A DNA stretch of 61,446 bases, counting the filler, from Sphacelaria rigidula (Eukaryota), in NCBI GenBank assembly GCA_964200075.2. It is 11 parts of 11 records of this genome, joined end to end, with 100 filler letters (N's around TTAATTAATTAA, not from the genome) between each part and the next. Parts side by side here need not be neighbours in the genome. Positions count along the whole stretch, not along the records: positions 27,977 to 33,471 come from CAXNAA020026861.1; positions 33,572 to 39,066 come from CAXNAA020026862.1; 9 more parts are not named here. The stretch is one strand, 5' to 3'. Positions 4,974 through 57,479 of the stretch are shown here, in pieces; the stretch's first letter is position 1, and each line of letters starts with the position of its first letter. The translations under genes were made by a program, and so were the position numbers. Under the pieces are notes generated by a model that did not search any database, was not told the origin of the DNA, and saw only the letters and a program-made list of their open reading frames with translations.

Positions 4974-5496
4974 CTTGATTCAGGGTGAGGCGTACGTACG
5001 GGCGGGCGGACGGACAGACGGACAGACGAACAGTGAGAAAAAAAAATGCTCTCAGCGAGGAGTGTGGACGCGCTGGCGTGAATAGAAGAGACTACACAGG
5101 AAGGAGTGGCATATAATTTCCGTGACGCTGTTTTGCACAGCGCATCTCTCTCTCTCCCTCCTCAAGCTTGACACGTATATTTTGAAGTCCGCAAGGAATT
5201 CAAGATGCGTACGGTCGATGGAGTCATCTGCTTTGTACCCGGCCAGGAATGAGTAGGAGCGGCGGTTGTTGTGGCACGGAAATTGATACACCCCTGCTTC
5301 ATCGTATCGGTTGCCGAGCGCAGTTTTTGGCTTGCATCCATAGCGATGTTTACTAGTGGTGTTCTCGTACGTGTTCGACGTTGTCCATGTGCTCCAGATC
5401 TCTTTTCCCCCCCCCCCCCCCCCGCGCCCCCCCCCCCCCCCCCCCCCCACCCCTCGCCAACACCCCCCCACCCGCCCCCTCCCCCTCCACCTCATC

Positions 5497-6924: not shown

Positions 6925-9900
6925 CTGCACGGCGCGGTTGCCGGGCTTCCTTCGCTCCTAGACATATCGCTCCCCATCCTCGCCAGGCGGTGCACCAGAT
7001 CCCCCCCGGGCATTGGTCCCCGCATGCCGCCGCCGATACCGCCTCCTGGGAGGCCTCTCCTGTCTGGATGATGACTGTTGGGCATCATGCCGTGTCCGTT
7101 GTTGGTGGGGGGGCCGGGATGCATGTGACCGTTGTTGTGGTTCATACCGGCCGCGGCCAATGTCTCCGAGTTCCCCTCAGCGATAAGCCGATTGAGCATC
7201 GCGACAGCTGCGTCAACGTTTTTCTTCTCTCCCGTTACGCAAAATGTGGACATCTGAGGTTGGATCCGGGCCGAGGGGACACGGACGGCGAAGAGGCAGA
7301 GAGCGAGGCGATGAACTCATGTTGCAGGATAATTCTCGTTTCGCACGAGAGCACAGGGAATAGCTCAGAAGCTCAGTGCATAGCGTTGTCAATAAATCGA
7401 CGAGCACAGGTCACTTTTCTCGCGAAGAAAAAAAAAAGCCGTGCGTCACTCAACCACCCGCCCCCCTCCATCAGACTGGGATTTGAACCCTGCTCCGTTT
7501 CACCACTTTTACTGTTCTCGCACCCAACCCATGTAAGGAGGTGAACTCGTGAAAATTGAACAACACAGTACTGTCACCAAGGGGCGCTACCAACATAAGT
7601 ACCCACCCCCTCGATTCTAGCAATAGCTCGGTGTGGGCGAGACCTGAGGAGGGGGGGCGTGGGTGGGTGGGGGGGTGGGGGGGTACACCCGTTATGAGGG
7701 GGATAACCCCAAGATAACATGGGTAATAGACAATGACGATAGTAAGCACTGTACCACTAGAATTTCTGCCGGACTTTTCACGTTTTTCCTCCTCATCAAG
7801 AGCTTGCGAGGGGGTGGGGAAGGAAGATCCTGGACCCCAGCTGGTGGCACCCTTCGTCCCTGGGCATAGTCAGCGCATTTTCCATTTCAAGTCGTGGTGA
7901 GACTGGTGAGTGTACGAACAGCCGACCTGCAAATGTGTACAGTACAGTAAAATACTGCATCGAATCCTCCATCCTCCCCCTCCCTGCGCGCGCTTTTCCC
8001 CCTCCCTGAGCTTACCTTGCAGTTTGCAAAGACGCAGCTAGCACCACTCTCCGCCTGAATCTTCCGGCTGAGCCTCTGGATGGACGGGAGCAGGTGCACA
8101 GGGCACTGCACAGTCTGCGTGATGCCTGCACCGCCACCCGCCTGTGCTCGCGTTTATTCCAGCGCAAGAGAAAAAAAGAAATGCAAAGGGCGGCGGCACA
8201 GCAAAGAGTCGTTCGACAACCATATGGTTGAGTCATCCATCCTCTGTTCAATCGGTATCAAGCTTTATTGTTCTCCCTCCATCTTTCTCTCTCTCTCTCA
8301 CACAGTACCAGGGCTATCTTAAAATTTACCCTTGCACTAAAAATGTCATTTTCCAAGTGAAAATGAGTCGATTCAACGACTGACCCATGCTGGCGGTCAG
8401 AGGATTCAACGGTAGCCCATACCCCTCCCTCCCCACACACATCTCGTCTCGAAAGGGATGCGTGGTCGATGGTCAAACGGCTAAGGCAAGCAACAAATGC
8501 GTAGTATGTCCCGAGCGGAGGGAAACATGTATCGCACAGGCGAGATAATTATATTTGATGGAGTAAATAAAGTGAAAATAAACATGAGTTATTATTTACT
8601 GAAAATGCATGGAGAAAAACAACAGAGTTTTTACTACTTGGTAGGCCTTTACTTGATCTCAGCGTCAAAACCACGATTTGGAATCTTTAATGGGAGTGTG
8701 CTCCTAGCGTGCGCAGAACGCGCGTTCTTGCCTCGGTCGGTGCCGCAGGTGCCGATATGACGTCTACCAATGCACACTTTGCCTACTAAACACGTTGCAC
8801 CCCCCTTATCCGAGGGTTCTCGGTATGCTTTCGCAGGGGTTAGGGTTAGGGTTAGCGTTATCGCAAACGACAAAATGCCGAGAATTTTCTCCAACGTGCC
8901 AACGTAGTGGTAAACTGACCTCAAGAAAAAACTACATTACCATCGCTTAGCATTTGAAACGAACTTTCCCATCAAGCGTCATACGCACAGCGATTGCCCA
9001 TCAATGCGCTGAGGGCCTAAGAAGCACTAGCACAATCCAGGTACAGTGTGAAGTCATCCTCCAAGAATTGGCGGGACTGTCACATCAGCCGGTTGGCCGC
9101 GGGCAGCACAAGGGTTGCTGTGCGACAATCAGCCGATCAAACTGCGTTACAGTGATACGTGACAAGGTCGAGCGACATAGATTTTTCACTCCTTGTGCAT
9201 CAACAGCCCGATCCAAACTGGACCGGACCGGACCGGACCGGGTCTGACAATGGTGAAAGTGCCGTAGCAGTACTTCATCGATCATCGTTTTCACTTTGGT
9301 TTGCCCCGTATGCTTGATATATGATCCTGATCCCCTCCCCATACAATAATAGCGCTACGACAACACAGATATTCAACTCACACTCACAGCATCTGATCGT
9401 GCAACAAACAAGATATCGTACCGGTACGCAGGAACACAGCTGCCCCTGGCCGGCACAAAATCGAGCCAGCAGGGTCAAAAAACCTCGTTTTGGGACTCCT
9501 TAAGTAATCGGGGTATATTCTTTGCCCCTTCTCACTTCTCCGAGAAAAAGCAGATCCTTCATAATCCCATTTTCATTTTTATTCCTCCTTCTTGATTTTT
9601 TTCTCGAGAAAATCGAAGCACAGTCTTCTTTGACACAAATTTCAAAATTTCGGGCGAAAAACCTAGCTTTCATCATCCATCAGCCCGCCAGGTGTGCCGA
9701 AAAGAAAGAAACAACGCAAAAATTAAAAAGAAAACAACAGGAAAGACAAAGGAAAAGAAAAAGGAAAAAGGAAAGATAGTAAAAGAAGAGAAAACCACCA
9801 AACAAAAAACATGCGTTCCAATGGTTTCAATCTTTCGTTGCTGAACATCTGAATCTGGCGAGTCATATTTTTCAAGCGAACACGGTGCCGATGAATTAGC

Positions 9901-10910: not shown

Positions 10911-11091
10911 AGGGGGGGGGCGTACTCATTTGTTGCTTGCCTGAGTCGTTTGACTATTAACCACGCATCCGTCTCGAGATGGAGGAAACGATGACGAGGG
11001 AGGGGGGGTAATCATGATCTTGCATATCATGGTCATAAGACCATTGACCTCGCATCCCTACAAAACCGGGACGGAGCACGCCGGGTTTTCG
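10911..11091 (-). mobile_element. Two stacked LINE 3' ends (subfamily A 10911-10982, subfamily B 11003-11091), each at a G-run
   Basis: GGGGGGGGGCGTACTCATTTG... and GGGGGGGTAATCATGATC...CCATTGACCTCGCATCC. Confidence 0.8.
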
Positions 11092-16786: not shown

Positions 16787-16858
16787 GGGGGGGCGTACTC
16801 ATTTGTTGCTTGCCTTGGTCATTTGACCATTGACCACGCATCCCTTTCGAGACGGAGC
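16787..16858 (-). mobile_element. LINE 3'-end fragment (subfamily A) at the contig edge
   Basis: GGGGGGGGCGTACTCATTTGTTGCTTGCC...CCCTTTCGAGACGGAG, followed by a G-run. Confidence 0.8.
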
Positions 16859-19139
16859 GTGGTTGGGGGGGGGGGTTGTGGACCGATGGGAGACTGCTAC
16901 CTACACCACGTCTCGTCGAGACATAAAATGATGATGCAACGTGAGAAATGGAATAAATATGCCGAAGACCCCACGTGTGGCAATCATTTCACGTTCCCTT
17001 TCACATTTTGATCATCGGGCTGTTCTTCCTCCTCTCACAGTGTAGAAAAAAATATGTTGAGTTTTTGTGGTGAGGAAGAGTACGAAATGTAACGTGAAAT
17101 GGTTGCGCCACTCGTAGGCTGTCGTTCCGCAATTGTAACTCTCATTTTTATTTCGTTTGTAATCTAGAAGATGAGGCCTTTAGTGGGGTTTTGCATATGC
17201 CTTTCATAGTGAGCTTCGGAAGGCTTTTTTTTATTGCTGTTGATGCCTTCTAATGTCGTTCCGTTATTGCTGCTGTATGTCCTTTTTTTGTTGGCTCACA
17301 CATGCAAAGGTCCCACTACGATACCTCCGGACGTATCCGCTTGGGTCCTGCTCCACTCAACATGGAAATCCCACCGTACAAGTTCATCGAAAGACGCGTC
17401 ATCGTCATCGGATAGGCAGGCATGATGGATGATGACATTTTTATCGACGTGGCAGATGATTTTGGACTCTTCAGGGAGGAGGTTTTGAAAATCGAAGCGA
17501 AAGCTTGAGGAGCATCTGAGGCGGGCAGGGAACGACGAGGGAAGGAGAGGGGAGGAGGGAGGGCACAGGAAATAAGTGTGCATTCATCATGCGGCTGCCA
17601 TTTTCGTTTTTGCAGACGAGGATCGGCGTGGCTCCCATTGATGTTGGCAGCAATCACCTCCGTGGTTTCATAAATATTTTTCCTCTCTCGTTTCTTTCCC
17701 TCTTCCCCTCCTGTCACGTTAGTCTCCTTTACGATGGATTTCGAGTTTTGTTTCTCATTTCATGGACCCCCTCTTCCGAAACACATGTTTTAAGCGCGGA
17801 AGTGAGAGGGGAGGGAGGAGAAAGAGGAGGAAGTGATAACTTGGGCGCCATGCCGCCCAAGATATTGAGGAGTTGATTTTGCATTTTGTGGGGTAGGCAA
17901 GGGGCGAGGGGAGGGAAAGAGAGGACAAGATTTCGCGCTTCTTGTCCAATCGCTGTGCCGTCCATGGACTACAGTCCACCAGCCGCGAAATGCACATGGA
18001 ATGTGCGAGCACTGGTGGTTATTTTTGCTGTTTTGAGGAAGGAAAACATGAAAAAGAGGGAGGGGGGGAACGAAAAGCATGCTTGTTACCTCAATACGTT
18101 CATGTTTCCACCTTGTGCTGCCCCATTCTTATGATGATGATACGTGCGTGGTTGACCCGAGCGTACAAGGAATCGGACAAGGGCCAACAGCGTCTTGATC
18201 AACTGGCGAGTCTTCAACACAATTTCTTCCTGAAAGAGTCTTGTGGAGCATTGGACTTCTTTGTCTATGCCGCAGCGGCAACAGATGGACCTCTAACACT
18301 ACAAGTACTCTGTGTACACTGTACTGAAACAGAGTAGTGCTATATACGGCAGGGGTGCACAGACCATTGATTATCGCGCTCTAGCTGACCACCCAGGGAT
18401 CTGGCCGTGGTCACATGATGTACGTACCCGAGACGAGACAACTAGAACACTCACTGAAGAGAAATGGAAAAACTGCGGAGGAGCATGGAAGGCACGCATA
18501 CTCACCTCACATGTGCTAGTCTGCATCTGTCCCATCCTGCCGATCAAATCACTTTACTGGCGCAGTCTAATGAATGAACAGTACAGGACGTGCGACTATG
18601 CACATTTTCGTGAGGATGGCGTATCGGTCCCCGAACGTGTTTTATTTTTGCTGCCACAAGGAACGACTTCGGTCCGTGCGTTACGGAGGTCGTGGATACG
18701 TTCGGTCCTGTCAGGTACTGGTGAACACATTGATGACAGTATGTACATCGAACGAGAGGGATTTTACGGTGGGTAGGGGTGCATGCATTCTTTGGTGCAA
18801 TTTGTTTCGAGGCTGCACAGTAAAGCCCAGATATTTGTCATTGAGATGCCCTGACCGTGCAGAGCCACAAAATAAACATACGAACCTCTGCCATTGGACT
18901 ACTCTCGAATGGTATCGTTACAATCTTCGCCTTTTCCTTCGTTTGTTGTTCCAATTTGAGTTTGACAAGGTGAAGTTGGATTTGGTTTCTGCTGGGCGTA
19001 AAAACTCGACCGACTGTTTCGTTGCGAAAGGATTTTTGCGACCCGATCCTTGCGACAGATTATTTCATATGCCGGACGAGCACGAGTGGCACTCGTGGCA
19101 CTCGCACTCGTTGGGCCGCTCATTGACCGAAAAATGATT

Positions 19140-19252: not shown

Positions 19253-20914
19253 TGTGAACGACTTCAGTGGAGGAGTCAGCAATCCGACGAGCAAATAATT
19301 CTTCCACGATCTTGAACCTAGAATCTTCAAGTTCACATGCACATGTGCACATCCTGTGACAGCCCGTCACGGTATTGCTCCTCATGTTTCATCACGCTTC
19401 ATTCGAGAACACGCAGAAGACATGCCAGCGAGTCCATCATTGTTGCACTTGGAGGTGTGGTGAATCAGGGATTTTTTTATCTAGTACCGCCGCATGCTCC
19501 GTGCTGTACCTAATAGTATAATACCGTACCAGTTCAAAGACGGATATGCATGATATAAACGGCACCGACATGCTCTGGTTATCATGAACTGTGTACGTGG
19601 CGCGGGAAGCGTAGTTTTTGTCAAGAAATTCAAAGACACAACCATACTGCAGTACAAGCATTTCTTATGATTAGCGTGCAACACGTGATCCGAACGAGAC
19701 AAAAGGCAAAGCATTTGCATTATAATACCTGGGCGCTTTGGCACTGAAACGAGTCTCACCAGTCCCTCCACTACCTACCGTAAGGAGATTGATACCACGT
19801 GTAATTTCGAAATGAGTTACGGCCAGACCTTCACTTTAGAGTAGAAGGGCCCAGCCGAGACCACTCTGGTTTCACCGCCTAAATCCGAGACCGCACAACG
19901 CCACAAACACCGAAATAAATTGGAAATTATATTGGACGCGCCCTGGACACAGGGCAATCTATCAGGAAACAAAATGCACACATTCCGACGTCCGTTCTAC
20001 CATTGAAATGTATGCTCATTGTCAACGCGCTGAATAAATACTGTAGATCAGCGTGGAAGTAAATGTACAACCCAAACACGCCACTCTGCCAGGAAGATGA
20101 AACAACAGCGGATTCTCGAAAGTGGGGTCGAACAACAAAATGACGTTCAAATCAAAAGCAGCCTTTGGGGGAACGGAAGGCCAGAAATTCCTCGAAATAG
20201 GTTTAGGGACGTCGTCAATATGAAGCTCATTTGTCATGATTTTGGGTCAGAGTAAGCATTGCTTTTGAGTTGAACCTCATTTTTTTGTTCAACCCTGTTT
20301 TTTAAAATACACTGCTGAACGGCTTCCTACTGAGCAAACATCGCCCATTCCCTCCCGCCTGACAAAGCTCACGCCCAGCAGAAATGGGCTACTATCCTAT
20401 ATAGAACTACACCGCTCCGACACCATGTCATCCCTCCTCCTCTCTCCTTTCCCACGCCTCCCTCAATGCGCACTTCCCGAGAGAATCTACGGAACCAATG
20501 CCCCATGTACAGGTACAAGACGAGGTAGGGCATGGAGGCAATCCTCCCTTCTTGCACCCCCCTCCACCCCCCCCCCCGCGCGCAGAACAGTACGTGTTAG
20601 AGGGGGGAAATGTGGAAAGTAAACGAGGGTGACAAGAAATCGTTTCATCCATTAGACGTTAGCGAGAGAGCGGTCGCTACCCTAGGAAATAGATGTTCAA
20701 CGGCGAACCAGGAAGGGAACAAGATATGCAGGGTGTTACAGCGGATACCGACCGTACATGTAGTAGGCGTTTCGAAGTACGTGTGGCATGTGCATTAGGT
20801 TTTGTTCCATCCGCATACTAGTGTTGTGTTCCAATTTGGCGTGCTTCACGTCCCTGGCCCGTCACAACTTCCAACTTCAAGCTACTTAGCAACAGTCGTT
20901 TCAGCTACTTAGCA

Positions 20915-21215
20915 ACACGCATGATCATGAGTACACCCCACCCCCCATGGGGTTAATGTCTATTGGCAACGACGCTGTAAAACACGCCACTCAATGTGTG
21001 CTTGGTGATTGCGGACCTGGTCCGGCGAAACCCAACGTGCTCCGTCTCGGCGTTGTTTGGATGCGAAGTCAATGCCATATGACTACGGCATGCAACATTA
21101 TGAATACAACCCCCTCCCTCCCGCCCGCGCGCTCAATATACAATTCCCCTCCCCCAATGGAGTTGGCGTCGGTTGGCAATGACGCCGTGACACACGCCAC
21201 TCACTGCGTAAGCTA
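20915..21215 (+). mobile_element. Two LINE subfamily-B 3' ends with a duplicated ~55-bp C-rich flank
   Basis: ATGATCATGAGTACACCCC (20921) and GCTCCGTCTCGG...TATGAATACAACCCCC (21039-21114); CCCCCMATGGRGTT...GGCAAYGACGCYGTRAMACACGCCACTCA occurs twice. Confidence 0.7.
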
Positions 21216-29292: not shown

Positions 29293-29530
29293 GAGTGATG
29301 CCGCGATGCCCCTCCCGCCAAACCAGTCCCGAAATTGTCACGAAGAAAGCGGACATACAGGGCAGGATAGCTGGTTTCAGACTGCAAAAAGGGCCTCATA
29401 TGGGTGACATTGGCAAAAACGGCCGCACTGCTTGGTGTACTCTCTGCTTTTGTCATCTTTATTCACAACATGTTGACATTGCTTCCTCAAACCAACCGTT
29501 TTTATGGGGGGGGATGTCGCGGCATCACTC
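29293..29530. mobile_element. Complete Sola2-like MITE (GAG...CTC termini, 4-bp TSD)
   Basis: TIR GAGTGATGCCGCGAT / GTCGCGGCATCACTC; flanks GATC / TATC. Confidence 0.75.
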
Positions 29531-30131
29531 TATCGTATAAATCCAACTCATGCAGGGCGACTTCTGCTTCATGCTATTTCGGCACCTTTCAGCCCTCTCT
29601 CTCCTCGATCCTGTAGGCCCGCGCGTCGCACAGTCAGCCACCATATTATGTTGACCCACTTCCGTGCTACTACTAGCGTTTTGTGCCGAAAGGGGGGTGT
29701 TATCGGTAACAGTTCACTATGACCGCCACATCGTATATAGTGTTGCTCGGCCAGAAGATATGGTATGTACGCGCGATAAACACAAGAGCAACAGGAGACA
29801 AGGAAAGACAGCGTCCGTCCATCGTCAAGAAGAGCCGTACTGGAGCTTGAGGTTCCGGAAGCCGGCGACGAGCTGGCGCATCTCCGCGTGGCTGTCGCAC
29901 GTCATCTGAGCGAGATGCAATGTAGAAGGTGGAGCGCCGGCCGAAAAGGGACATAAGAATGTGTTGTTTGTCCGTGAATCATGCTTACGATATAGCACTG
30001 TTGGCATTATGAAGCGGCTGTTAATCCTCGGCAGACGCTTGTTGTGGTAAAGTTCTGCCACTTATATTGGGGACATTATTCTGCACCCTCGTGCATGCTA
30101 CTTTTTTAGCACTTTATTATTAATACCAGCA

Positions 30132-30388: not shown

Positions 30389-31490
30389 AGCACTGCTCGT
30401 AATCATGGTCTCTCGACGGGAGCAATCGCACTGTACTGTTGTTTTCAACCTGACATATTATTAGTTGCAAAGTGATACATTATCGCTTCTACAGGCATAC
30501 ATGAATGGAAAGTCCAGAGAGACTGTCTTCACAATCAGGGCCTTGAGGAAAACACAGATTATTTGTCATTCGCATCAGAACTATGCATTCGCGAGAAAAA
30601 GACCAAAACTTCGGATAGATAGGCGATAGAATAGTTATGAGAACTGATGAGTCGATACACATGGAAATCGGACAGACGGAAGTAGAGGCTACGTCGGTTC
30701 TCAACGAGTGATGCCGCGATACCCCCCCCCAAAAAAAGGGATCTAAGATAATAAAGACCCGGTGGAGTTCAAATGGAAATAGGGAGAGGAGGAATCAACT
30801 GCCGATCATAGACCAGTATACATACCTGAAATGGGGAGAAGAGCAATCAACTGCCGATCGTAGACCAGTATACATACCTTGGCGTAGAAATCTAAAACAA
30901 ATGTTCTTGGGATGCGCATATAATAGATGAAGCAATAGAAAAAGGTAAGGCACGGATAGGCAGGATGGACGTGATCCTCAGGGACTCGCACCTAGATACT
31001 AGGATCCAGATATGCATCCTGATGAATGTGATTGTGCCAAAGCTGAAACATGCAGGAGAACTATGGAAGGGGAACGGGAAATTGGTGAAGAAGTTGGGAA
31101 CAGTACAGATGGCAGCAGCTAAGAAAATAGTTGGATGCTCGAAAACGACGAGGAACACAGTTTTGAGAGCAGACTTGGGAATATACTCACTCAAAACAAA
31201 CAGAGACACGAGGAAATTGAGATGGCAATATAGCGTGAAAAACATGCAGAGAAGGATATTGCCAGCCATAGTTGATACGTCTGTACGGAAGACAATTACG
31301 GAAGGGCAGGCTGGAATAAGGTGGGATAGAGAAATCGAGACAGCGGTGAAGGAACTAGGAGGAAACCAAGACGAGATAATGCCCACAGAGGAAGGCGCGG
31401 GGTATAAGACAAAAGTAAGAGACATGATAGAAACAAGGGGGCAAGGAGCGCTCAGATGCAAAGTGGATGAGGAAAAATACCGGAAGATAT

Positions 31491-32174
31491 AAACAGCCGA
31501 TCATCGAAATTGAGAATGGAGCTTTTCATTTAGGATGAGAACCCGGATAATTCGAATCTTCCACACGTCGGACAGGTCATGAGTTAACTCAGTTCTGTGG
31601 TGTAATCCATCCAGTTGGAAAAGGTACTGCTGAGCTATACAGCAAGCACGGTTCAGCTGGTGGAAAATGGTACCGCTGAGCTATATAATATAGCTCTGCC
31701 AGTGGAAATAGATACCGCTGAGTTATACAGTATATCTCAGCAGCTGAGATATACGAAAATGAGTTAGATGAGATTAATTGTCCGACGTGTGAAATCTTCG
31801 TATCCCCACCAAACCTTCGAAATATGGTTCCATTCCCTCACCTACTGGTAGCTATTGACAACTGCTACACGCCCTACGGATTTGGATTTCGATAGCCGAA
31901 ATGTTGGGATCCTAGATGAAGAAACAATATTGGGGAACTTGGGTGATCCGATCGGATCGCCGAACTTCCCCGGAATTACTTTTTCACCCAGGACTCCAAC
32001 ATTTCGGTTATCGAAATCCAACTTTGTATGACGTATAGTTCTCGTCAATAGCTACCAGCAGGTGAAGTAATAGAGCCATATTTTGAAGATTTGGTGTGGA
32101 TACGAAGATTTGAATCCTCCGGGTTCTCGTCTTCAATAAAAAGCTCCATCCTCAATTTCGATGATCGGCGGTTC
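31491..32174. mobile_element. Fully palindromic foldback MITE inserted in the LINE ORF (AT duplication)
   Basis: Termini AAACAGCCGATCATCGAAATTGAG / CTCAATTTCGATGATCGGCGGTTC; symmetry centre GATCCGATCGGATC near 31952; excision restores AAG ATA TAC GGG (KIYG) in frame. Confidence 0.85.
31562..31791. mobile_element. hAT-like mini-element nested in the foldback MITE
   Basis: 13-bp perfect TIR CACACGTCGGACA/TGTCCGACGTGTG; 8-bp TSD GAATCTTC/AAATCTTC; the empty site is visible in the 44490-44661 copy. Confidence 0.85.
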
Positions 32175-33624
32175 ATACGGGGGGTTGAGAGAGGGGATAG
32201 GGGTGACAACACATCTGCATGACCCAATGGACGCGGCGAAGAATCTGAAACTGCAACTTCGGGAGGGGGACCTGGACCTGCCAGAAAGAAGAGAGAGATT
32301 TACCAGTAGTCGAGAGGAAGAGGAAGTAGATGCAAAGAATTGCCCCTGTGGCAAAACAATAGAGAGCAGAAGTCATATAGTGGCAGAATGTGAACTATAC
32401 AAGGAGGAAAGGGGCGTGCTAGAGGGGGAAATGCGGGACGTGAACGAAGGTGGCATGAAATCGTTTGATGCAATTGATAGTAGTGAAAAACGATGGCTAT
32501 ACTAGGAGATAGATGGTGGCCACAGAAGGCGAAACAGGACGGGGATACAACATATAATTTGTTGTGTAATGTCTGGAAGAAACATAATAAGCACCTGAAT
32601 GTTAGAGATGTCTCTATTAGGAGTAGGAACGGTACTCCGTCTCGAAAGGGATGCGTGGTCAATGGTCGAACGACTAGGGCAAGCAACAAATGAGTACGCC
32701 CCCCCTTCAAAAGGGCCAAAAAACTGTCTCGAAGAAATGACCACACATACAGCGCATCGAGATGATGAATGGCTTCAGAAACCAGGTCTTGAAATTTACT
32801 ATGAAGTGCAGATCTTGATAATTGTTTTGAAGAAGGCAAATGCAGCCGATTTTAGAAACTAGGTCCGAATATCTCACACGTAGATTTCTCCCCGGTTCTC
32901 ATTCCACGTTTCTGGGGGGAGGCTACCGCGGTATCACTCCAACGCTGCGTCCTGAGTGACGATCCGTATATTTTTCTTCATATAACCTTTGAGACAATAA
33001 TTCTACAACTGTTATCAATATGATATGATAATGATAATTATTATTGTAACTGTTATTATCGAGCATTACCATTAATATCATCACAACTATTGTTATTGCT
33101 AACTATTGAAAGTATCATATTCAGTATTTGAGGTGGTGAAAAAAGAATCAAAATATAAACATATCATTGCCATCATTATCACTGTCATTAGAGGGTTTCG
33201 AAAACAAGTTTTTTGTCGGCGTGACGTTCGTCGGCGTATATCTGACACTTCTATGATAGCCCCCCCGTAAAAAAAAAACAGCCCAAAAGTGTCACAAAAA
33301 AAATTGTCATACGGCGCCTGATGTTTGGGTTCGGACTGCATGAAGCGCTTCATATGGGCGACATTGGTGAGAACGAACCCAAGCGTGGGAATTCTCCGCT
33401 GCTCGTCTTACTCGACTTTTTTCATTTCGATTTACGTGAAGATTATGCCTCCCCAAACCGGGCACTTTTCGNNNNNNNNNNNNNNNNNNNNNNNNNNNNN
33501 NNNNNNNNNNNNNNNTTAATTAATTAANNNNNNNNNNNNNNNNNNNNNNNNNNNNNNNNNNNNNNNNNNNNGATCAAAGCCACTCTCAATCAGCGCTCTA
33601 CTCTCGATCTCACGCACACTTTTT

Positions 33625-33805: not shown

Positions 33806-36800
33806 AGTACACGCGCCGCCCTGCTCTGAAGAGCTTCGGCCCTAGGTAACACGTTGTTTATCATCTTTTGGTACAAAAACACTACTATACAATTGTTGTA
33901 CTGTACCGAGATGTACAACAAGCGAACATGCCAGGAGCTATCCGGTGATCGTTCACTTCGACAATCTCAGGCAGAAGGCGTGGCGTGTGGTGGTCCAGAT
34001 TGGAGTCATGCTTGGGCGTCAACTGGAGCCGCCTGTAGGAGTTCGAAACATACTTGTCCCCAGTTATCATCATGGGGGTATGCCTACACCGTAAAAATTT
34101 GCCAGATTGTTGGAATAGGGCTCCGATGTGTCGATTCGATTCTTTGCGGGAGAGCTTTTACAAAACACTCAAACTTTGTTGTTCCCGGAATTTCAATTAT
34201 GAACACTTACGGCTTTTCGACGTGGACGGATAAGCCCTCGAATATTTCCATATCATTTGACTAGCAGTCTACTCTGACAGTTTTCCCCTCGTTTTATTTC
34301 GGTCACCGGCGACCACAGCTGTTTCAGTTTTTACATCAACTGTTTGGGCTGAAAACTTCAACGGATGTCTTGGAGATGATCTCGAGATATAATGGTCTGT
34401 TTGATTTGTCAGCTCATAGCTGTCACTCCGGAAAACGAAACGGGCCTGGAAAAACGTGTAGTATAGAGGTATTTGATTAATTGAAAACCATAAATTCCCA
34501 ATTTCAGCACAATAGACAATACAGTGATGCCCGTGAATGAAGGCCCGGGCGACCAGAAATCCGTGGGCATAAAACGATGACAAGAAACGCGGAGGAATGA
34601 TGAGGGAAAATGAAGACGTCATTGATAGACTGGTCGGACCTGTGCCGAACCTGTGCCGAATCTTTGCCAAACAGAACACAAGCCCCATCCCAAGTTACCT
34701 AGGTTTAGTATACGACAGCTGTAACTTTTCATCGCGTTTTTCCCGAGACAGGAAGCAAACCGGTCTGTGGCACTTCACAGCCCCCCGCACACACACTACA
34801 CCTAGTCAGTGTAGCGGCGGAGTTGCTCAATTCGCTCCGGAAAGCCCCAGAACGTTGAAGGAAACGCAGTTTTGAGTACATTCTATGTTTGGTGCAGCGT
34901 TTTGCAAAGGGCTGCAGCCTCTGCGGCACGCGTTACGGAAAGCCGCCGCCACACTGACTAGTTCTGGTGTGTAGAAAGCGCACGCATCATACCGTAGTCC
35001 AATTCTCTGCTTCCTTGCCGAGAAAATTTCATTGGAAGATAAGCACAACAATATACTACAACAAGAGGGGCACAACAACAACACGGGCAGCAGCTTCTAC
35101 CCTCCTGTTAATGTAACCCTGTGTGCAGGTGTACAGCAACGTCAGTCACAGGTTTGTTGTAGAATGCACTATAATAATAGTACATTTTGTATGACCGTCG
35201 TCGTAACTGTAAGTGACGCGTGTACTTGTTATTGATACTGTTTGGCTTCATCTATTTTGCATTCAAAGCAATGTTTTCGAACAGCGTGGATTCGAGTTTG
35301 AGGTTCATCATTTGGGAGACGTTAAAGTTATCATCGAAATTTCATTTATTTCGTCCAATAGGCTCGGGATATACGCAAGCAGTCTCGACCATAGCATTTG
35401 TGCCAGAGGTTTTCATCCGGCAGCCCAAGCATGATAAGCAGTTCACCACCGTCAGGGTGCGGCAATTCTTGAGCAGGACGTGCCCCTAAGCGCTATAGAA
35501 CACGCAACAGGGCGATGTCCCTGTCGCGCAACTGCCGCTGACGCAAGTACGGTTCTTCCCGTTTGCGTGCGTGCATATTTTCGAAGTGCGGAGCAGGGGA
35601 ATATAGCAGCGAGGTACTCGCCTGCTGCGCCGACACGAGCGTGAGCTACCGCACCTCCTGTAACGTCTACAGCTCGTGAAGTGGTGGGTATATCTAAGCG
35701 CATAGCTGATCGAAAGAAAATATGCTGCAAACAACCTTCTTTGGACTAGTCATCGAGTTTTCGAGCGCCTCTTGTTCACAAAAGTATCTGAGAGAGACTT
35801 CATACTGTTGACTGATGCCGAGATAGCCCCCCCACAAAACGTGCACCGGAGACCGTCCGACAAACCGGCTGCGATCCTACTATTAGTGGGCTCGTATACA
35901 GCGATTTCGCCCACATGAGAGGCATGTAGCAGTCCGAAATCAGCTATAACGTCCAAATGAGTCGCGTCGTGCAGCACGAAACCAGTTCTAATGGCATCTA
36001 TGATCATTGCCTCCGTGCACTTTTTGGCTGGTTTTTGGGGAGGGGGGGGCTATCTTAGCAGCAGTCTGTTGCCGCCGGCGAAGATCGCGGTCTGCAAAGC
36101 GATCCAACACGGCGACAGACGCCAGTGATCTTTGAAACGCGGCATTCAGCAGTCTGGTGAGATACACTATCACCAGAGTACGGCATCATGACGTACGTAG
36201 TTGCTCGTGGCACCAGACCCTCCTGTGGTTGTGACCAAGAATACACAGTACAAAGAAGCCACTCGTCGAGCAGTCCTTCCACTTATTATGTCAACAGTCA
36301 AATGTGATGATACTAAGCCCCCGGCAGCCCCGGGGGAAAATATAGTCAGTTGAATGAAACGGACCAGATAAAAGCTTCACACACACAATGAGGAGGTGAA
36401 AACTCCCACGCTTGGGGTGCTTTCGCCACTAGCGCCCATGAGAGGCGCTTCATCCAGTCTGACCCAGCTATTATGCCTTGTATGGCCACTTTCTTCTTGG
36501 CAGTGTTGGGAGCTGGTTTCGGGGTTGGCTGTCGAGGCATCGTGCAGCATGCTTGCGAACTGCGAGCCGTTTTTTTTTTAATTTACAACCCGAAGACGAG
36601 GTAGCAAACAAACGAATACAGTCACCTCTCGTCATTTTCGTAGGCTGACGGTCATTGTATAGTTTTTCAAAATATATCTATTCTTCCTCACAGAAAGGGG
36701 GTCTGAACCAGCCAGGAAAAGTGCTGGGTCGATCTTCCTCAGATATGGCGAGAAACAATTGCACAGTTTTTTGCAGAACATCGCTAGAAATGAAACATGT

Positions 36801-44484: not shown

Positions 44485-44661
44485 CACGCGATCTGACAAA
44501 TTGGGGATGGATCTTTCATTGCGGATGAGAAACCCGGAGAATTAAAATCTTCGTATCCACACCAAATCTTCGAATTATGGTTCCATTTCTTCACCTACTC
44601 ATAGCTATTGACAACTGCTAGACGCCATAGAAATTTGGATTTCGAACACCGAAATGTTGGG
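44485..44661. repeat. Second copy (one arm) of the 31491-32174 foldback MITE
   Basis: GGATGAGAAACCCGG...AAATCTTCGTATCCACACCAAATCTTCG...TAGCTATTGACAACTGCTA...CCGAAATGTTGGG; the contig ends near the palindrome centre. Confidence 0.85.
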
Positions 44662-44761: not shown

Positions 44762-44840
44762 CATCGCTCCAAACGGGTGCGTGGTCAACGCCCCAACAAC
44801 TAAGGCCACCAAACAACGGGTCCCCCCCCCCCCCCCCCCC
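44762..44840 (+). mobile_element. Divergent C-tract LINE 3' end (subfamily C)
   Basis: GGGTGCGTGGTCAACG...ACTAAGGCCACCAA (GCVVNAPTTKAT, cf. GCVVNGRTTRAS) running into a C19 tract. Confidence 0.55.
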
Positions 44841-49369: not shown

Positions 49370-49832
49370 CGGCCCTGTGACTCCATTGGTAACCTCGAAA
49401 CCTTCTGGCGGTTGGGTCGTGGGTTCAAATCTCGGAACGATCGGGGATGTTTTCACGGTTAGGACGAATGATGACGACTACGAATCACCAAATCCACGAT
49501 TTCTTCGGTCTGACTGCCCCAAAAAAAGGAGAAAAAAGTTGACCGCTGGCTCAAGGGGTATCCACGCTACTTTTGCGCCATTCCACATGTCTGGGCTGGG
49601 TAGCTGGGTTGCAACGCTGAAAAGAAAGCGTAGGAATTGATTCGTACGATTCGAATCAATTATACTAAAACCAAGTCATTTCCAGACAAACAATTATTTG
49701 TTCAACCCTTGGATTTTTCTCACACCATGCCAAACAGTGGAGAGCGACTATGTCGTGGGTACACAAAGTTTGACTTAAAGGTCGACGAGGGAAAGGGGCT
49801 GCTGAATTCCTCCCGCGGTAAAAAAACGGCAA
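49370..49832 (+). mobile_element. tRNA-derived SINE interrupted by a MITE and truncated by another element
   Basis: Head CCCTGTGACTCCATTGGTAACCTCGAAACC...GGTTCAAATCTCGG; body resumes at 49712 (GATTTTTCTCACACC...GTCGACGAGGGAAAGGGGCTGCTGAA). Confidence 0.8.
49454..49711. mobile_element. hAT-like MITE (other pieces at 27718-27876 and 55952-56014)
   Basis: Imperfect TIR CACGGTTAGGACGAAT / ATTTGTTCAACCCTTG; flanks GATGTTTT / GATTTTTC. Confidence 0.7.
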
Positions 49833-50170: not shown

Positions 50171-50749
50171 ACCTACCTCTGCTACGAGCTGGGCCAGCCT
50201 AGAGGCGGATTTGAAGTTTGCAGGCCCATGCTCTTTTATACATTTAGAGTTGGGCCNNNNNNNNNNNNNNNNNNNNNNNNNNNNNNNNNNNNNNNNNNNN
50301 TTAATTAATTAANNNNNNNNNNNNNNNNNNNNNNNNNNNNNNNNNNNNNNNNNNNNGCTTTTCCCCGACCGTCCTTGGACGGTGTCGGGGCCAAACTTTA
50401 ATTTATCTTGGTGTTTATCATCGAAAGCCCCCCCCCCCCCCCCCCCCCCTCCCACCATGCGCTCGTCGCCGCCCCCAGCAGCGATACGTGCCGATATGGT
50501 ATTAGTTTCTCCCGACGAACGTATGGAATATGTGTTCAGTTCTCGGCTTATAGGGCCAACGCGGATCATTTGGTTCGTACTATGCGTGCGAGGTGAACTT
50601 GGTTTGCGACAAACGGCGTTGCTTTCCCCCCAATTGCATGTGCGGGCCTCTCGGGCGATTTTTACACGGAACACGCCGTTGTTTTTCGTTGCTGTTATTA
50701 TTGTCGCACTCTTGGCCGTTTTGTACCTCGTGTATTGTTTTGTGTCCAG

Positions 50750-53700
50750 GTATGCCCCCAGAAATGGCCAACATGCCGAGCGCCAGCGTAGCATTCAGCA
50801 TGATGTTTGGGGAGCGACCGACAGACGAGGTCAGTTGTTCGCATCTTTGGCCTATATATTTTATTCGAAACACGTTCACCCCTTGAAAGTTATATGATGT
50901 TCGACCTAACAAGTAGATTTTTACTACATTGGTGGCACAGTTACGTGATGTTTCGACTTCGAGGACAAATTCCAAGCGTCAGTTTGCTGTGAAATCCAGA
51001 CTCTTGCCGGAGTCTTGGTCGATCCTGAATCTTCTCAACGACACTCACAACAACGATGATTTCGACAAACCTCTGATCATTGGTCTCCAACAAGGTAGCC
51101 CGCAGTGTCCAGAGCGTTTGGCAACGTGAGATCGAATCCAAGACGCTTATTTTTCGACTGTAGCGCGTAAGCACGTGAAATGTTGTCCATTATTCTCTTC
51201 CGTGTGTGTGTAGTCATTTCCTTCGCAGAGTGGTACACGGTACACATACCTGCAGTAGCTGTAGCTAGCGGTAATGTGGTGACTGCGTACATGTATGATA
51301 CGTTCACCTTTTTTTTCCCTAACGTTTTGGTGTGCTTTGTGTTGTGTGTTCGTCCGCTTGTGGGTGCAATGCAATAGACGTGGAGCAGCGAGGAAGGTGA
51401 TGAGTCGGGTGAGGGCGTAGAGGAGGACTACGATCCCGATGAGGAAGACTTCGACCTCGACCACGGTCAGTTTTGTGTTGCGCTGTACCCTTGGTGCATA
51501 CTGGATTCCTGTTACGACGATGGGTGCGTTGTACTTGTGGTGAACGGTCATTATCTCTTACGGTACGTCTGACCATAGCCTCAAAATTTGCCGTTTCCTT
51601 TCTGAAAGACATGAGCAAAGAATCCTGGGCAAAACTGAGTTCTGTGCCCTTCTTCCACAATGCGCAACGTATGTTCCACGCGCGATACTCCTCAGCACCG
51701 CTGCCACCACCATTACCACCATCAGCATCGGGCGTACGAATATTGTGATCTGCGTCAAGTCATTATTGAACGCGTCGCTTCTTTTCAATTCCGTTGCTTT
51801 GCTCTGCTTGAAGTTTATTTTACGGCTAGTTGATTCAATATCATGAATGCCCCCCCGCCCTCCCTCGCTCCGTCTCGAAAGGGATGCGTAGTCAATGGTT
51901 AAACGACTAAGGCAAGCAACAAATGAGTACGCCCCCCCGCCCTCCTTCGATTTAATTATCATTTGGGGTCTTCTTCATTCTCATATACTCTCTTCTTCTC
52001 CCTCTCCAGACGGTGAACCAATCGAGAGGGATGAGGTGAGAGGAGGACACCATGCAGAACAGCACCAGCACTGCAGCAACGGCAACGGAAACAGCAATAC
52101 CTCTTCGTCTGCAGCAGAGACAGCAGCAGCAGCCGCAGCGGCGGCGGCAGCGGAGGCCCTCAAGGCTGGGGTGGGGGTCGGGGGTAGACAAGGGGTTGCG
52201 AGTGGCGGAGGCGGCGGGGCTGGAGCAACTGGCGAGTGCTTATGGGAGCCCATGGTGCGACACTATTTCCGTATGAACCTCAAGGTGTGTCTTTTTTCTG
52301 ACAGCTAGAAGATGACATTATCATGAGGGGTCCCGTGGCTCGTTTCTGCTTGCGATCACGATGGAAGTTTTTGATCGTCTCTTGCCCGAAAATATGTGAG
52401 GCTGTGTTATTGCTGCTTTGTGCTGTACTGTTGGGCGGTGCCAATAGAGCATGGTGGCGCATGCTTGCGGGCCCTTTTTCGATTTCTCCCTTTTTTTTTT
52501 GTTGGCAGTGCGGCAGACAGGAGGCGTAATTTTCGCCCTGCGTTTGGCGTGAGCGTGTGTGGTTCCTTGACACACGAGAAGCTGTCGAGTGTGGATGAGA
52601 CTGAGTAGTCTACTATTGTCCTGTTCAAGGGTCCGTTCAGGACGTCTTGGAAGATGACCATGTCTGACTATGATACCACATCTATCGCCAGAGGTGATGT
52701 GGTTCCTCTATTTAGGGTGTGGGGGATTGGAAATTGCCGAAGTACACCCCAAGCTTAGCTGTTGCACGGTCGTGTGGTGGTGGGAGCGCAGTTCCGGATC
52801 TGGTATACCTGTTAGCTTCTCTCGAGGAAAACAAAAATATCTTTTGATACCGGAAGCATTGAATCTCTCCTCCCTCCGCTATGCATTCAGTCGGCAGTTA
52901 TGTGTGCAAATCGGCGATCGCTGCCAGTCTTGTGTGTCAAGGGAGTCAATTGGTGAGTGACGAAAGAACGCCAGTTGATCTGTCATGTGTCGACGACCCC
53001 GCCAACTCCCGTTCCCCCTCCTTAGGTCGTTCTTGCGTCCGCTCTTCCATCTTCCACTCTACAGAATCTTTAGCCTTAATCTACGCTATGCGCCGGGGTG
53101 TGTGCGTTTTCGTTGTTGTGTCATGTTACTCTTCAGGAGGAGGTTGAGCAACAGAGGGCGGCCGGGCGAGGGGGCGGTGGAGGGGGGTGTGGTGGTGGCG
53201 GTGGCGATGTTAGTGTAGACGTTGGCTCTGGGGAAGATGTGGACCTCGAGGAAGAGGTGATTGGCTTGTGTTCGGTGTACAGACGGTATCCGCCCTCTAC
53301 AATGAAGACAACGCTCTATCTTGAACATCTCTTGCACCTGTTTTACTGATTGGCGTCCTGGTGTTGCGTGCGTAACGTCCATAAACGTAGTTGCCATCGC
53401 TGCACGCAGTCAAGGAGCCGTTGTGACGCCCCGCCTTCCTCACCCTAGTGAACGAGTCGCCGAAAACACGCTAATGTAGCAGTATTGCCGCCGCGCCGTA
53501 GTGGTCTAATCGGCACACGTGACGGCAACTAGGGCGGAAAAACGCGGGTTCGATTTCCGAAAAAATCATTTTCTTTTTTCTTCTGAAAATGATCTGATTT
53601 CGTCTCTGACAACGTGGAGACATGAGTAGAATCTAACTTTTACTCGAGAAGAGACGAGGCGGTGCGGGAGTACTGATACAATCAATCTGCGATACCGAAA

Positions 53701-55851: not shown

Positions 55852-57479
55852 NNNNNNNNNNNNNNNNNNNNNNNNNNNNNNNNNNNNNNNNNNNNTTAAT
55901 TAATTAANNNNNNNNNNNNNNNNNNNNNNNNNNNNNNNNNNNNNNNNNNNNCAATCAGACCGAAGAGATCGTGGATTTGGTGATTCTTAGTCGTGATGAT
56001 TCGTCCTAACCGTGAAACATATCCTTGCTTTTTGTTTCATGTATACCGGCGTTTGTACGCCGTCGACGAGTGGCACGCCACTTTCTCTACGCCAACATAT
56101 CGGCAGCACAGCGGCACAACAACTAGCACTACCTCACAGCACCGAACACAACGACCATGTTTGCGCAGGTCGAGGCCGTTCGTTGTCGCCATCATACCTG
56201 CTGCGTTGCTGCGTGTTGCGTGCCGTCACGAACGTTTCTCGTTATGATCCTGTACACACACGGCGCATTGTGTGTGTGTGTGTGCAGGAAACATGGGCGT
56301 ACACATCGCACGCAACACTAAATTACTCTCCAGCTCGCTTCCGGTTGCGTCTCGTTTCACTGCGCGTGGTCGCGCCAAAACCCCGTCATGTCGGTGTCAC
56401 CTGTTTTGCAATATCATGCTTACGACTCGTCGGTTTCATCCATGTCCAACTTTACCCACTGCTCAACTCTAGGCACACGTGCATGCGGAGGCAAGAAACT
56501 GCGCAAACCTCTTGCTTCGTTCGTTTTCTGGAATCTTGACTACCTGCCCACGATCGACAAACTTCCTTCTTCGACTGCGGTAAATCGGCTGCTTACGTTC
56601 ATTTCCAAGTCACTCACAACACCGCCGCGCTACTGTACCCACTTGCCCTGTGAGACACACATCAAGCGCTGTACATGAGGCCCGAAAAAACTCAATCCGT
56701 GCACATAAACCGTGAGTAGCATGAGGAGTACGAGAGTTGTACCAAACGGTGCCCGTTGAAGGGTTCCACCCTACGACAGCCTCGTCGGAAAGCTGGTATT
56801 GTTGCCTACCACCGGCAGCCTCTTGCGTTTCCTTAGCTTGGACTGCGGTTGTGTCATTAAAAGCGCCCGTCGATTTTGTGCGATACATCGCCGTGTTATC
56901 TCGGAGGTTGCGTGCAATCAACTTTCGCATTTCCTCCTTCGTGAATAAATTGTGGCTTTTGCAATGGGAAAAAAATCTTTGGCGAAAAAAATCTCTGGCG
57001 CTGCGCTTGGCACATGCGGTGTCCCTCAGAGTATGTGATGGTCTATCCAATCGACGGGCGGCCCTGATATTTCTGTTTTTTCCCGTCAGCAACCGCTTCT
57101 TCGCGTCTGACGGTTACAGATACATGCAATATTTTCCGGTGGACTATGGGCAGTATTCCCGTGATAATGTGATCCGCTTCGCGCTGAAAACATTGAAGCG
57201 CGCGCGACAAGCGCTGGATCTCTCTCGAGTAGGGGCGGTTTATCTGTTTCCGGTTGCTTCACCGTCACCCGTCCGGGGTCACACGGAGTCATTCTTGTCC
57301 CGTACACGCCCTATTCGCGTTCCAAAGCACATTTCCGACTGTGCTGTCTCACTAACTTGTACTCTCCCCGCTCCTTCATGTCATGGCAGATTATTGGAGC
57401 TCCCATTGCTCGAGGAGTCGCCATCACCCTGCCGAGGCGGTGGACGGGGAGAAGCGAGTAGGCACGAGATCGCGCGACG

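Follow-up and report, generated by a model that had tools for sequence, protein, structure and literature searches.

A LINE family with 12 3' ends in the window

The window, by which we mean the entire 61,446-nucleotide stretch of Sphacelaria rigidula DNA that was analysed (assembly GCA_964200075.2), is made up of 11 pieces of 5495–5496 bp each, with spacers of the form N44-TTAATTAATTAA-N44 between them. Four of these pieces open at the end of a repeat element, namely the LINE family described here in three cases and a different repeat (repeat X) in the fourth. A search of the window with a profile built from LINE 3'-end copies (cut-off E ≤ 1e-5; the two next matches, at E 0.43 and 8.1, were excluded) recovered all 12 of the 3' ends listed in an earlier reading of the sequence, in line with the original prediction of at least 10 ends of a single family in 61 kb. 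The 12 ends are spread over seven of the 11 pieces and belong to copies ranging in length from 53 nt to ~1.27 kb (nested MITE excluded). A tRNA scan of the window returned no tRNA genes; a T-arm-like sequence lies near 49400–49450.

The long copy (30741–32698, plus strand; profile match 32636–32698) is 5'-truncated and dead, and retains the C-terminal part of the reverse transcriptase (RT), a CCHC motif and the end of the ORF. Its defects comprise an in-frame stop, a frameshift near 32487–32505 and a nested MITE, and by tblastn it aligns to residues 974–1360 of a full-length relative, P0002, at 61–70% identity. The same comparison with full-length relatives confirmed the RT C-terminus and the CPCG..H....C motif; the stop codon (TGA, 32691–32693) lies 5 nt from the last element base at 32698, so that all three coding features claimed for this copy in the original prediction hold. 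A Pfam search of the copy's own ORF pieces gave nothing significant; the long copy does not include the RT core. The nested MITE, which is unrelated, was delimited by self-BLAST (31490–32175, unstranded) and has 74-bp terminal inverted repeats at 31488–31561 and 32104–32177; its removal restores the reading frame (KYRKI|YGGL), from which we infer a duplication of TA.

The long copy itself struck a second MITE, Y (~260 bp), whose left terminal inverted repeat (30706–30730, plus strand) ends in a C-run and whose right arm lies near 32914–32940 on the minus strand. The C-run of this same terminal inverted repeat was hit independently in two MITE Y copies, by a short element at 2332–2388 and by the long one at 30741–32698, whereas in other MITE Y copies the run is an uninterrupted C7–C8.

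The family is a LINE with an APE-type endonuclease

The domain architecture of the family can be read from relatives of full length, the single proteins P0002 (1360 aa) and P0004 (1328 aa), which come from contigs of 4.9 and 5.6 kb. Both carry an APE endonuclease domain (Exo_endo_phos; residues 170–392 and 142–383, respectively) N-terminal to the RT, a region that the truncated copies in the window do not reach, and in P0002 the RVT_1 domain spans residues 740–989 (E 1e-30). The family is thus a LINE with an APE-type endonuclease. The two proteins end in ...GCVVNGQMTKASNK, like the copy in the window, and the terminal peptide ..GCVVNG.. is kept across relatives down to ~40% RT identity. The best PDB matches of P0002 are L1 ORF2p and R2 (RT core against L1 ORF2p, E ~1e-20), and those homologues that carry a name belong to Ectocarpus sp., with ~60–63% protein identity, which is that of another family or another species. 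Neither the PDB matches nor the names of the protein matches were informative for clade placement. The family shares with the annotation of RTEX-1/2_Ec32 an apparently single EN-RT ORF, a (C)n 3' terminus and a C-rich target site duplication (TSD), and on the basis of this table annotation is most likely a relative of these elements within RTE-X. The best reading is that of a very abundant jumping element and a novel member of the RTE-X-like kind.

C-runs, not poly(A), follow most of the 3' ends

The remaining 11 copies are as follows. On the plus strand lie copy A (1–51, profile match 1–43; cut by the start of the window, with a second type of tail that ends in ...ATGAGTACA), copy C (8445–8503, match 8444–8503; divergent end ATGCGTA), copy K (20593–20946, match 20871–20934 at E 1e-5), copy L (21020–21122, match 21048–21108; second tail type, divergent), copy H (44762–44840, match 44766–44821; 60 nt, divergent, at a piece start) and copy I (51850–51949, match 51869–51931). 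Copy K, ~340 nt long and ending in ATGAGTACA, belongs to a more divergent lineage (72.7% identity over 143 nt to 32415–32555 by blastn). The minus-strand copies are B (2325–2388, match 2333–2388; 57 nt, in a MITE Y C-run like the long copy), D (10912–10984, match 10921–10983; 64 nt), E (11002–11091, match 11008–11070; second tail type, at least 83 nt up to the piece end), F (16787–16857, match 16794–16856; 64 nt) and J (59627–59714, match 59647–59702). Copy D landed 17 nt behind copy E's C7 tail.

In nine of the 12 copies a run of at least seven C starts directly after the last element base (C8, C7, C9, C7, at least C7, C7, C19, C7 and C9 after copies A, B, D, E, F, the long copy, H, I and J, in that order; the run of copy F is cut by the start of its piece). 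After two further copies the C-run is interrupted (CCCCACCCCCC at 20936 for copy K, ACCCCCTCCCTCCC at 21109 for copy L), and one copy, ending at 8503, has no C-run. The claim that the 3' ends abut or adjoin C-runs is therefore borne out, as is that of a missing poly(A) or microsatellite tail, which inspection of the 3' junctions found in none of the 12 copies. The window contains 33 C/G runs of seven or more in 60,566 non-N bases (59 of six or more in 60.6 kb), nine of which adjoin a 3' end of the family, and against this run density within the window the binomial probability of nine such copies in 12 is ~2e-30.

Target site duplications and an empty allele

TSDs of 15–18 nt could be read, and all of them, including four clean ones, start with a C-run. 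At copy I, the 64-nt element (51868–51931) is flanked by duplications at 51850–51867 and 51932–51949 that are identical at 17 of 18 positions and both begin with C7. The duplications of copy J (59627–59641 and 59700–59714, around an element at 59647–59699) match at 15 of 15 positions, with five extra C at 59642–59646. Those of the long copy (upstream 30722–30740, C9 A7 GGG; downstream 32699–32715, C7 + TTCAAAAGGG) agree at 14 of 17 positions in a local alignment, and those of copy B (2325 and 2389) at 14 of 16, with CCCCTCC upstream versus CCCCCCC downstream. The original prediction had placed the C-run within clean duplications at copies I and J, which is correct apart from one coordinate (59626 for 59627).

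Copy J is also polymorphic. In a contig from run X4 (record 22, 1943 nt, depth 26.8), position 59626 is joined to 59700 without a gap; this comparison covers the piece that holds copy J and yielded one empty allele. Contigs from runs X1 and X3 enter the element from both sides and therefore carry the filled allele, and the Logan contigs of these two runs (records 6 and 13) show an identical G9 run and an identical junction. The empty site itself holds a C-run, CCCC, whereas the filled allele has C9 at its 3' junction, which argues that the element brings C's with it; since a deletion between the two 15-bp duplications would leave the same sequence, the X4 allele alone is not proof of the ancestral state. 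In all four runs compared over the copy J piece, the loose ends of other genomic copies extend past the 3' end as G-runs on the plus strand. Sequencing depth over copy J, as a crude ratio, reaches ~1e5 times that of single-copy sequence in all four runs; this figure is not a copy number, but it agrees with the finding of 12 copies in 60 kb. Together, the duplications, the truncated copies and the empty allele uphold the earlier identification of a LINE moving by target-primed reverse transcription (TPRT), and the suggestion that it may lengthen C/G tracts finds one supporting case in the change from 4 to 9 C at copy J.

Discussion

Given the observed identity of the family, its C-run adjacency, the anatomy of its TSDs, one empty allele and the gain of C at that site, we think it likely that this is an oligo-C-tailed APE LINE of a brown-alga-like genome, which inserts by TPRT with the oligo-C end of its RNA paired to a G-run at the nick. 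In such a scheme, a single ORF would run to within 5 nt of the element end, and the element RNA would terminate in a short oligo-C (~7–9 C) in place of poly(A). The nick in the bottom strand would fall on the 3' border of a G-run, whose 3'-OH end would pair with the oligo-C terminus of the RNA and prime cDNA synthesis, and the top strand would be cut 15–20 bp further on. A nick at the G-run, oligo-C pairing and an offset top-strand cut would together make every TSD begin with the C-run, and the run at the 3' junction would be at least as long as that of the target. Most products are extremely short (57–64 nt). The C's would reside in the RNA, and pairing, not endonuclease specificity, would pick the site. 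Against the scheme, homopolymers change quickly in length by mutation and are a source of assembly errors, and one copy (ending at 8503) has no C-run. At the long copy, nine C upstream versus seven downstream is the opposite of what an oligo-C tail predicts for the time of insertion, and both the C7 on either side of copy I and the two insertions into MITE Y are explained equally well by a pure target preference.

The size distribution of the copies bears on the source of the RNA. The original prediction spoke of variable 5' truncation, but truncation is not broadly variable: seven of the 12 copies are 64 nt or shorter (an eighth, 1–43, is clipped by the start of the window), and four share the same first nucleotide (CTCC..., at 10984, 16857, the 44762 region and 51868), 64 nt from the end, with differing upstream flanks. 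The second tail type (copies A, E, J and L) also carries the ~60-bp 3' module, and its homology to the first begins at CTCCGTC, the very point of the shared 5' start; in copies E and L the LINE reading frame is lost upstream of the module, within the short stretch available. We therefore entertain, as less likely than not, that the 57–64-nt copies, instead of being truncated LINEs, are a separate non-autonomous retroposon consisting of the tail alone, or else a processed fragment of RNA, which the LINE protein mobilises in trans, a proposal that would have a parallel in Ectocarpus, where the non-autonomous RTEX-N1/N2_Ec32 are described as sharing only a 60–100-bp 3' end with the autonomous families (PMC12477816). 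These copies, however, have no distinct head and no promoter-like part, their 64 nt match the coding end of the long LINE copy at 94% identity, copies B, C and J start elsewhere (within 20 nt), and the shared start would be explained equally well if TPRT aborted at a fixed boundary of the RNA or RNP. No complete non-autonomous element sharing the 3' module could be delimited within the window. A degenerate 21-nt 3'-end pattern found 12 loci among JGI metagenome contigs, all chance matches, which were rejected as extra copies as they carry neither the upstream module nor C-runs. As for a conserved hairpin in the module, the folds give no support for or against it: single folds have z-scores of -1.3 to +0.5, and the alignment fold of 10 copies has 11 pairs with no compensatory changes (covariation term +0.26). 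The tail-only proposal concerns the source RNA and not the mechanism of insertion, and is compatible with the oligo-C tail.

It is unlikely, in our judgement, that the element is truly tail-less, with an RNA ending in ...GAGTAC(G/A), an endonuclease that recognises G/C homopolymers and all C's at the junction supplied by the target. This would agree with the full C-runs in upstream duplications or targets (C7 at copy I, C9 at the long copy, C11 at 16865–16875 before copy F) and with copy B and the long copy having both struck a pre-existing MITE Y run. Against it, the runs downstream of the elements cluster at 7–9 C whatever the run of the target, while the upstream runs are 4, 4, 7, 9 and 11; copy J has four C in the empty allele and upstream duplication versus nine downstream; the upstream run of copy B is interrupted and its downstream run is not; and a curated consensus from Ectocarpus has (C)n as its 3' terminus (PMC12477816). 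Of the original prediction, insertion at C/G homopolymers stands, and its secondary idea of an oligo-C RNA end at the priming step fits better than its headline of a tail-less element. An artefact of assembly or sequencing (chimeras at contig ends or homopolymer errors) is very improbable: three copies (at 1, 16787 and 44762) do stand at the edge of a piece, and in one case the boundary between pieces interrupts a C-run, but contig breaks are expected at a very abundant repeat, eight copies are internal with TSDs, the independent X1 and X3 contigs reproduce the junction of copy J, and the empty/filled polymorphism, the protein homology and the published description of the same features speak against it as well.

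Returning to the oligo-C-tailed LINE, such a family would be the reason that the genome is peppered with C/G runs and that assemblies break there. More tentatively, the lineage may be a main maker of the G/C tracts of its genome, feeding on its own products, with its last 64 nt serving as a dual-use module. If so, the C7–9 run of each insertion would form a new landing site and give rise to element-C(n)-element chains, and much of the genome's total of C/G runs would trace back to the family. The 64-nt module, besides encoding the terminal peptide, would act as an RNA handle for the RT, which would explain the discrete 64-nt insertions. Were pairing of oligo-C with a G-run to select the site, the family would offer a natural counterpart to the poly(A)/T-run logic of L1 and a clean system in which to separate endonuclease specificity from primer–template pairing in TPRT.

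Comparison with known systems

L1 nicks at TTTT/AA and uses a T-run primer that pairs with its poly(A) tail, which is added by polyadenylation; the element comprises two ORFs together with a 3' UTR. The likeness to the scheme proposed here is that a homopolymeric RNA end would pair with a complementary homopolymer at the nick; the difference is A versus C. Microsatellite-specific LINEs, such as those of the Tx1, R4 and R1 groups, insert in a fixed register into tandem arrays of dinucleotides or trinucleotides. Both they and the present family use simple repeats, but here any C-run of at least four serves, in unique DNA, in MITEs or in other tails. To our knowledge, a C-homopolymer tail is unusual among LINE tails.

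A closer likeness is found among RTE-clade LINEs and their SINEs (Au-like and others), which have a very short 3' region and no poly(A). For retroposons related to RTE, a correlation is reported between the base with which the TSD begins and the 3' microsatellite-like repeat, and Nishiyama and Ohshima (2018) propose a role for the repeat in the RNA in determining where priming occurs (PMC6007223). The systems described there have microsatellite-like tails, and their target is marked by a T stretch ~10 nt upstream of the TSD, whereas here the tail would be a C homopolymer and the homopolymer itself is the start of the TSD.

The closest system is RTEX_Ec32 of Ectocarpus, described as its most abundant LINE group, with tandem arrangements (PMC12477816). 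Supplementary file 1 of that study lists RTEX-1_Ec32 as 'single EN-RT ORF; (C)n 3'' with a 'C-rich' TSD and RTEX-2_Ec32 as '(C)n termini/TSD'; in its main text the term 'C-rich' does not occur, and C tails or C targeting are not discussed. Across the literature retrieved on C-tract or oligo-C LINEs and on RTEX, C tails appeared only in this table; a Chlorella preprint, a Repbase review and a preprint on brown-algal genomes refer to RTE-X or to LINEs but give no information on tails. A C-tract-targeting clade has thus been described in part, as table annotation, and the C tail and landing in C-runs are largely a known oddity, already present in the published Ectocarpus repeat table. With the rows of that table the Sphacelaria family has in common an apparently single EN-RT ORF, a (C)n 3' terminus, C-rich TSDs and tandem arrangements, and perhaps a 3' end shared with non-autonomous partners; it differs from them in its 64-nt tail-only copies and its empty-site evidence, neither of which those rows contain.

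Identity of the element

A BLAST search of the window with the reported region, together with a profile derived from the copies, identified 12 copies of the LINE 3' end spread over seven of the 11 pieces, and recovered all twelve of the 3' ends named in the original prediction (two extra profile matches, with E values of 0.43 and 8.1, were left out of this count). The pieces are 5495–5496 bp long, are separated by N44-TTAATTAATTAA-N44 spacers and do not represent a single locus.

The long copy (30741–32698, + strand) matches residues 974–1360 of full-length relatives at 61–70% identity. As had been proposed, it contains a Cys/His motif (CPCG..H....C) and its stop codon, a TGA at 32691–32693, lies five bases ahead of the last element base. 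This LINE copy is dead and truncated at its 5' side, and its frame is shifted near 32490. The full-length relatives P0002 (1360 aa) and P0004 (1328 aa) each combine, in one protein, an Exo_endo_phos (APE) domain with a following RVT_1, and their C-terminal peptide is the same as that of the window copy; the endonuclease is therefore APE-type and not restriction-like, a choice the original prediction had left undecided. The sole named homologues of the long copy's protein are from Ectocarpus sp. (63% identity), which indicates that the genome belongs to a brown alga or something closely related.

The long copy also contains a tandem duplication of about 50 bp (30790–30875), such that the stretch encoding ..LPIVDQYTYL.. 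is present twice. Nested in its ORF is a 686-bp MITE unrelated to the LINE (31490–32175), which is bounded by inverted ends of 74 bp and contains a large palindrome (31792–32111); a related copy of this MITE lies at 44498–44661. From the restored reading frame we infer a TA duplication at the nested MITE.

Most LINE 3' ends abut C-runs

Read on the element sense strand, a run of at least seven C directly follows the element end in nine of the 12 copies, two others are followed by an interrupted C-run, and the copy ending at 8503 has none. C/G runs of at least 7 number 33 across the 60,566 non-N bases of the window, and nine such adjacencies in 12 would arise by chance with a probability of ~2e-30. 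The association of the 3' ends with C-runs is thus real and far beyond chance, as originally proposed, and the accompanying claim that poly(A) and microsatellite tails are absent also holds (no A-run or microsatellite follows the 3' end in any of the 12 copies). Long runs of 17, 22, 19 and 22 C occur at 5407–5469, 44822–44840 and 50428–50449; the group at 5407–5469 adjoins a piece end, and no element end could be recognised ahead of the run at 50428.

The C-run forms the start of every readable target site duplication (TSD), in agreement with the original prediction. These comprise the duplications of copy I (51850–51949, +; 18 nt, 17/18 identical), copy J (59627–59714, −; 15/15), the long copy (14/17) and copy B (2325–2388, −; 14/16). 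A second, MITE-like element, termed Y, also contains such runs. Its copy of ~260 bp (35810–36066) has 24-nt terminal inverted repeats ending in a C7–C9 run, and further arms lie at 30706–30730 (+), 32914–32940 (−), 29506–29535 (−) and 2389–2420 (−). Copy B and the long copy sit at the same position, at the terminal C-run, in two Y copies, whereas the run is uninterrupted in the third copy (35810–36066) and in the lone arm at 29506; pre-existing C-runs are therefore real targets. Insertions into older LINE tails occur as well, as with copy D (10912–10984, −), which lies 17 nt behind the C7 tail that ends copy E (11002–11091, −).

The element probably carries its own C-tail

Logan contigs from four public runs were aligned to the piece containing copy J. 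Contigs from X1 and X3 enter the element from both sides with no differences, and these runs therefore carry the filled allele. In contrast, an X4 contig (record 22, 1943 nt, depth 26.8, from a slightly diverged haplotype) joins 59626 straight to 59700 and represents an allele lacking 73 bp. The empty allele reads CCCC followed by the remainder of the TSD, whereas in the filled allele two copies of the TSD enclose 53 nt of element followed by five extra C, giving nine C at the 3' junction (the comparison draws on one empty allele, and homopolymers are unstable). The same empty sequence would also result if the 15-bp TSD copies had recombined with loss of the DNA between them, a caveat to this reading. 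Copy B likewise has CCCCTCC upstream versus CCCCCCC downstream. Downstream runs cluster at 7–9 (7, 7, 7, 7, at least 7 where a piece end cuts the run, 8, 9, 9 and 19), while upstream TSD runs measure 4, 4, 7, 9 and 11; the long, old copy, with nine C upstream versus seven downstream, tempers the extra-C reading. In all four runs, loose ends of other genomic copies extend beyond the element end as G-runs on the + strand. The original prediction is thus half right: the data support C-tract seeking but do not support a tail-less element.

A shared 64-nt 3' module

In four of the 12 copies the element starts at one and the same base, 64 nt from its end, and the sequences upstream of these copies are unrelated. 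Seven copies measure 64 nt or less, and an eighth is truncated where the window begins. The two tail types, variants of the 3' end, are homologous from this same point onwards. Random 5' truncation of the usual kind does not account for the shared start; the candidate explanations are target-primed reverse transcription (TPRT) that aborts at a fixed stop, and a tail-only RNA.

The final ORF codons overlap this module, whose nucleotides encode a conserved extreme C-terminal peptide (..GCVVNG..AMA..) found in 25 of 123 homologues (the relatives are proteins P0001–P0053). The motif [CR][VE][VA][NDY]G occurs in the last 25 residues of 25/123 homologues versus 3/5462 internal 25-residue windows, and extends to relatives with about 40% RT identity. 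These observations suggest a dual protein and RNA constraint on the module; no compensatory changes were found for its predicted conserved hairpin.

A repeat of ~66 nt, X (55952–56017, −; 49451–49516, +), is very abundant, has a sharp 5' boundary and ends in ...GGTCTGACTG followed by CCCC at 49517. Its summed depth in the Logan contigs of the four runs is thousands of times the single-copy depth. Many contigs link the LINE tail, a C/G run of 3–9 and the start of X, which may reflect insertion into older tails; the sides of these joints are short (19–28 nt), the software flags such rows with a warning, and they provide a lead only. Repeat X may represent another tail-only unit with a C-tail. 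Just upstream, 49395–49450 contains a tRNA T-arm-like stretch (GGTTCAAATC); ARAGORN found no tRNA anywhere in the window. Separately, the flanks behind copies K (20593–20946, +) and L (21020–21122, +) are alike (20936–21200; ..ATGGGGTTAATGTCTATTGGCAACGACGC.. and ..AATGGAGTTGGCGTCGGTTGGCAATGACGC..), and K and L with their flanks may be a ~180-bp tandem duplication or a composite repeat.

Relation to known systems

The curated Ectocarpus repeat library describes RTEX-1_Ec32 as 'single EN-RT ORF; (C)n 3'' with a 'C-rich' TSD, RTEX-2_Ec32 as having '(C)n termini/TSD', and RTEX-N1/N2 as non-autonomous partners that have the last 60–100 bp in common and 'can be present in tandem' (PMC12477816). With 16,418 copies, RTE-X is the library's most abundant LINE group (PMC12477816). 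The original prediction had named a match to an already described C-tract-targeting clade as one result that would refute it, and in substance the family shows such a match, through the RTEX-1_Ec32 and RTEX-2_Ec32 entries (PMC12477816). The family adds a new representative to a type that the Ectocarpus catalogue already contains, and its probable membership in RTE-X is judged from matching descriptors and Ectocarpus homologues. The main text of that source, as far as accessible, does not discuss tail or targeting ('C-rich' gives 0 matches; PMC12477816). Our literature text search found no further paper on C-tailed or C-tract-seeking LINEs and no study of the mechanism of C-tail or C-tract insertion.

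The element RNA most likely ends in about 7–9 C. Under TPRT, the bottom strand would be nicked at the 3' edge of the G-run, so that the primer would end in G's, and this G-run could pair with the oligo-C end of the RNA and prime reverse transcription. The proposed pairing follows the same logic as that of L1, the established case, in which a T-run primer pairs with poly(A). It also agrees with the proposal, made for RTE-related retroposons, that a 3' repeat of the RNA helps to set the priming site (PMC6007223).
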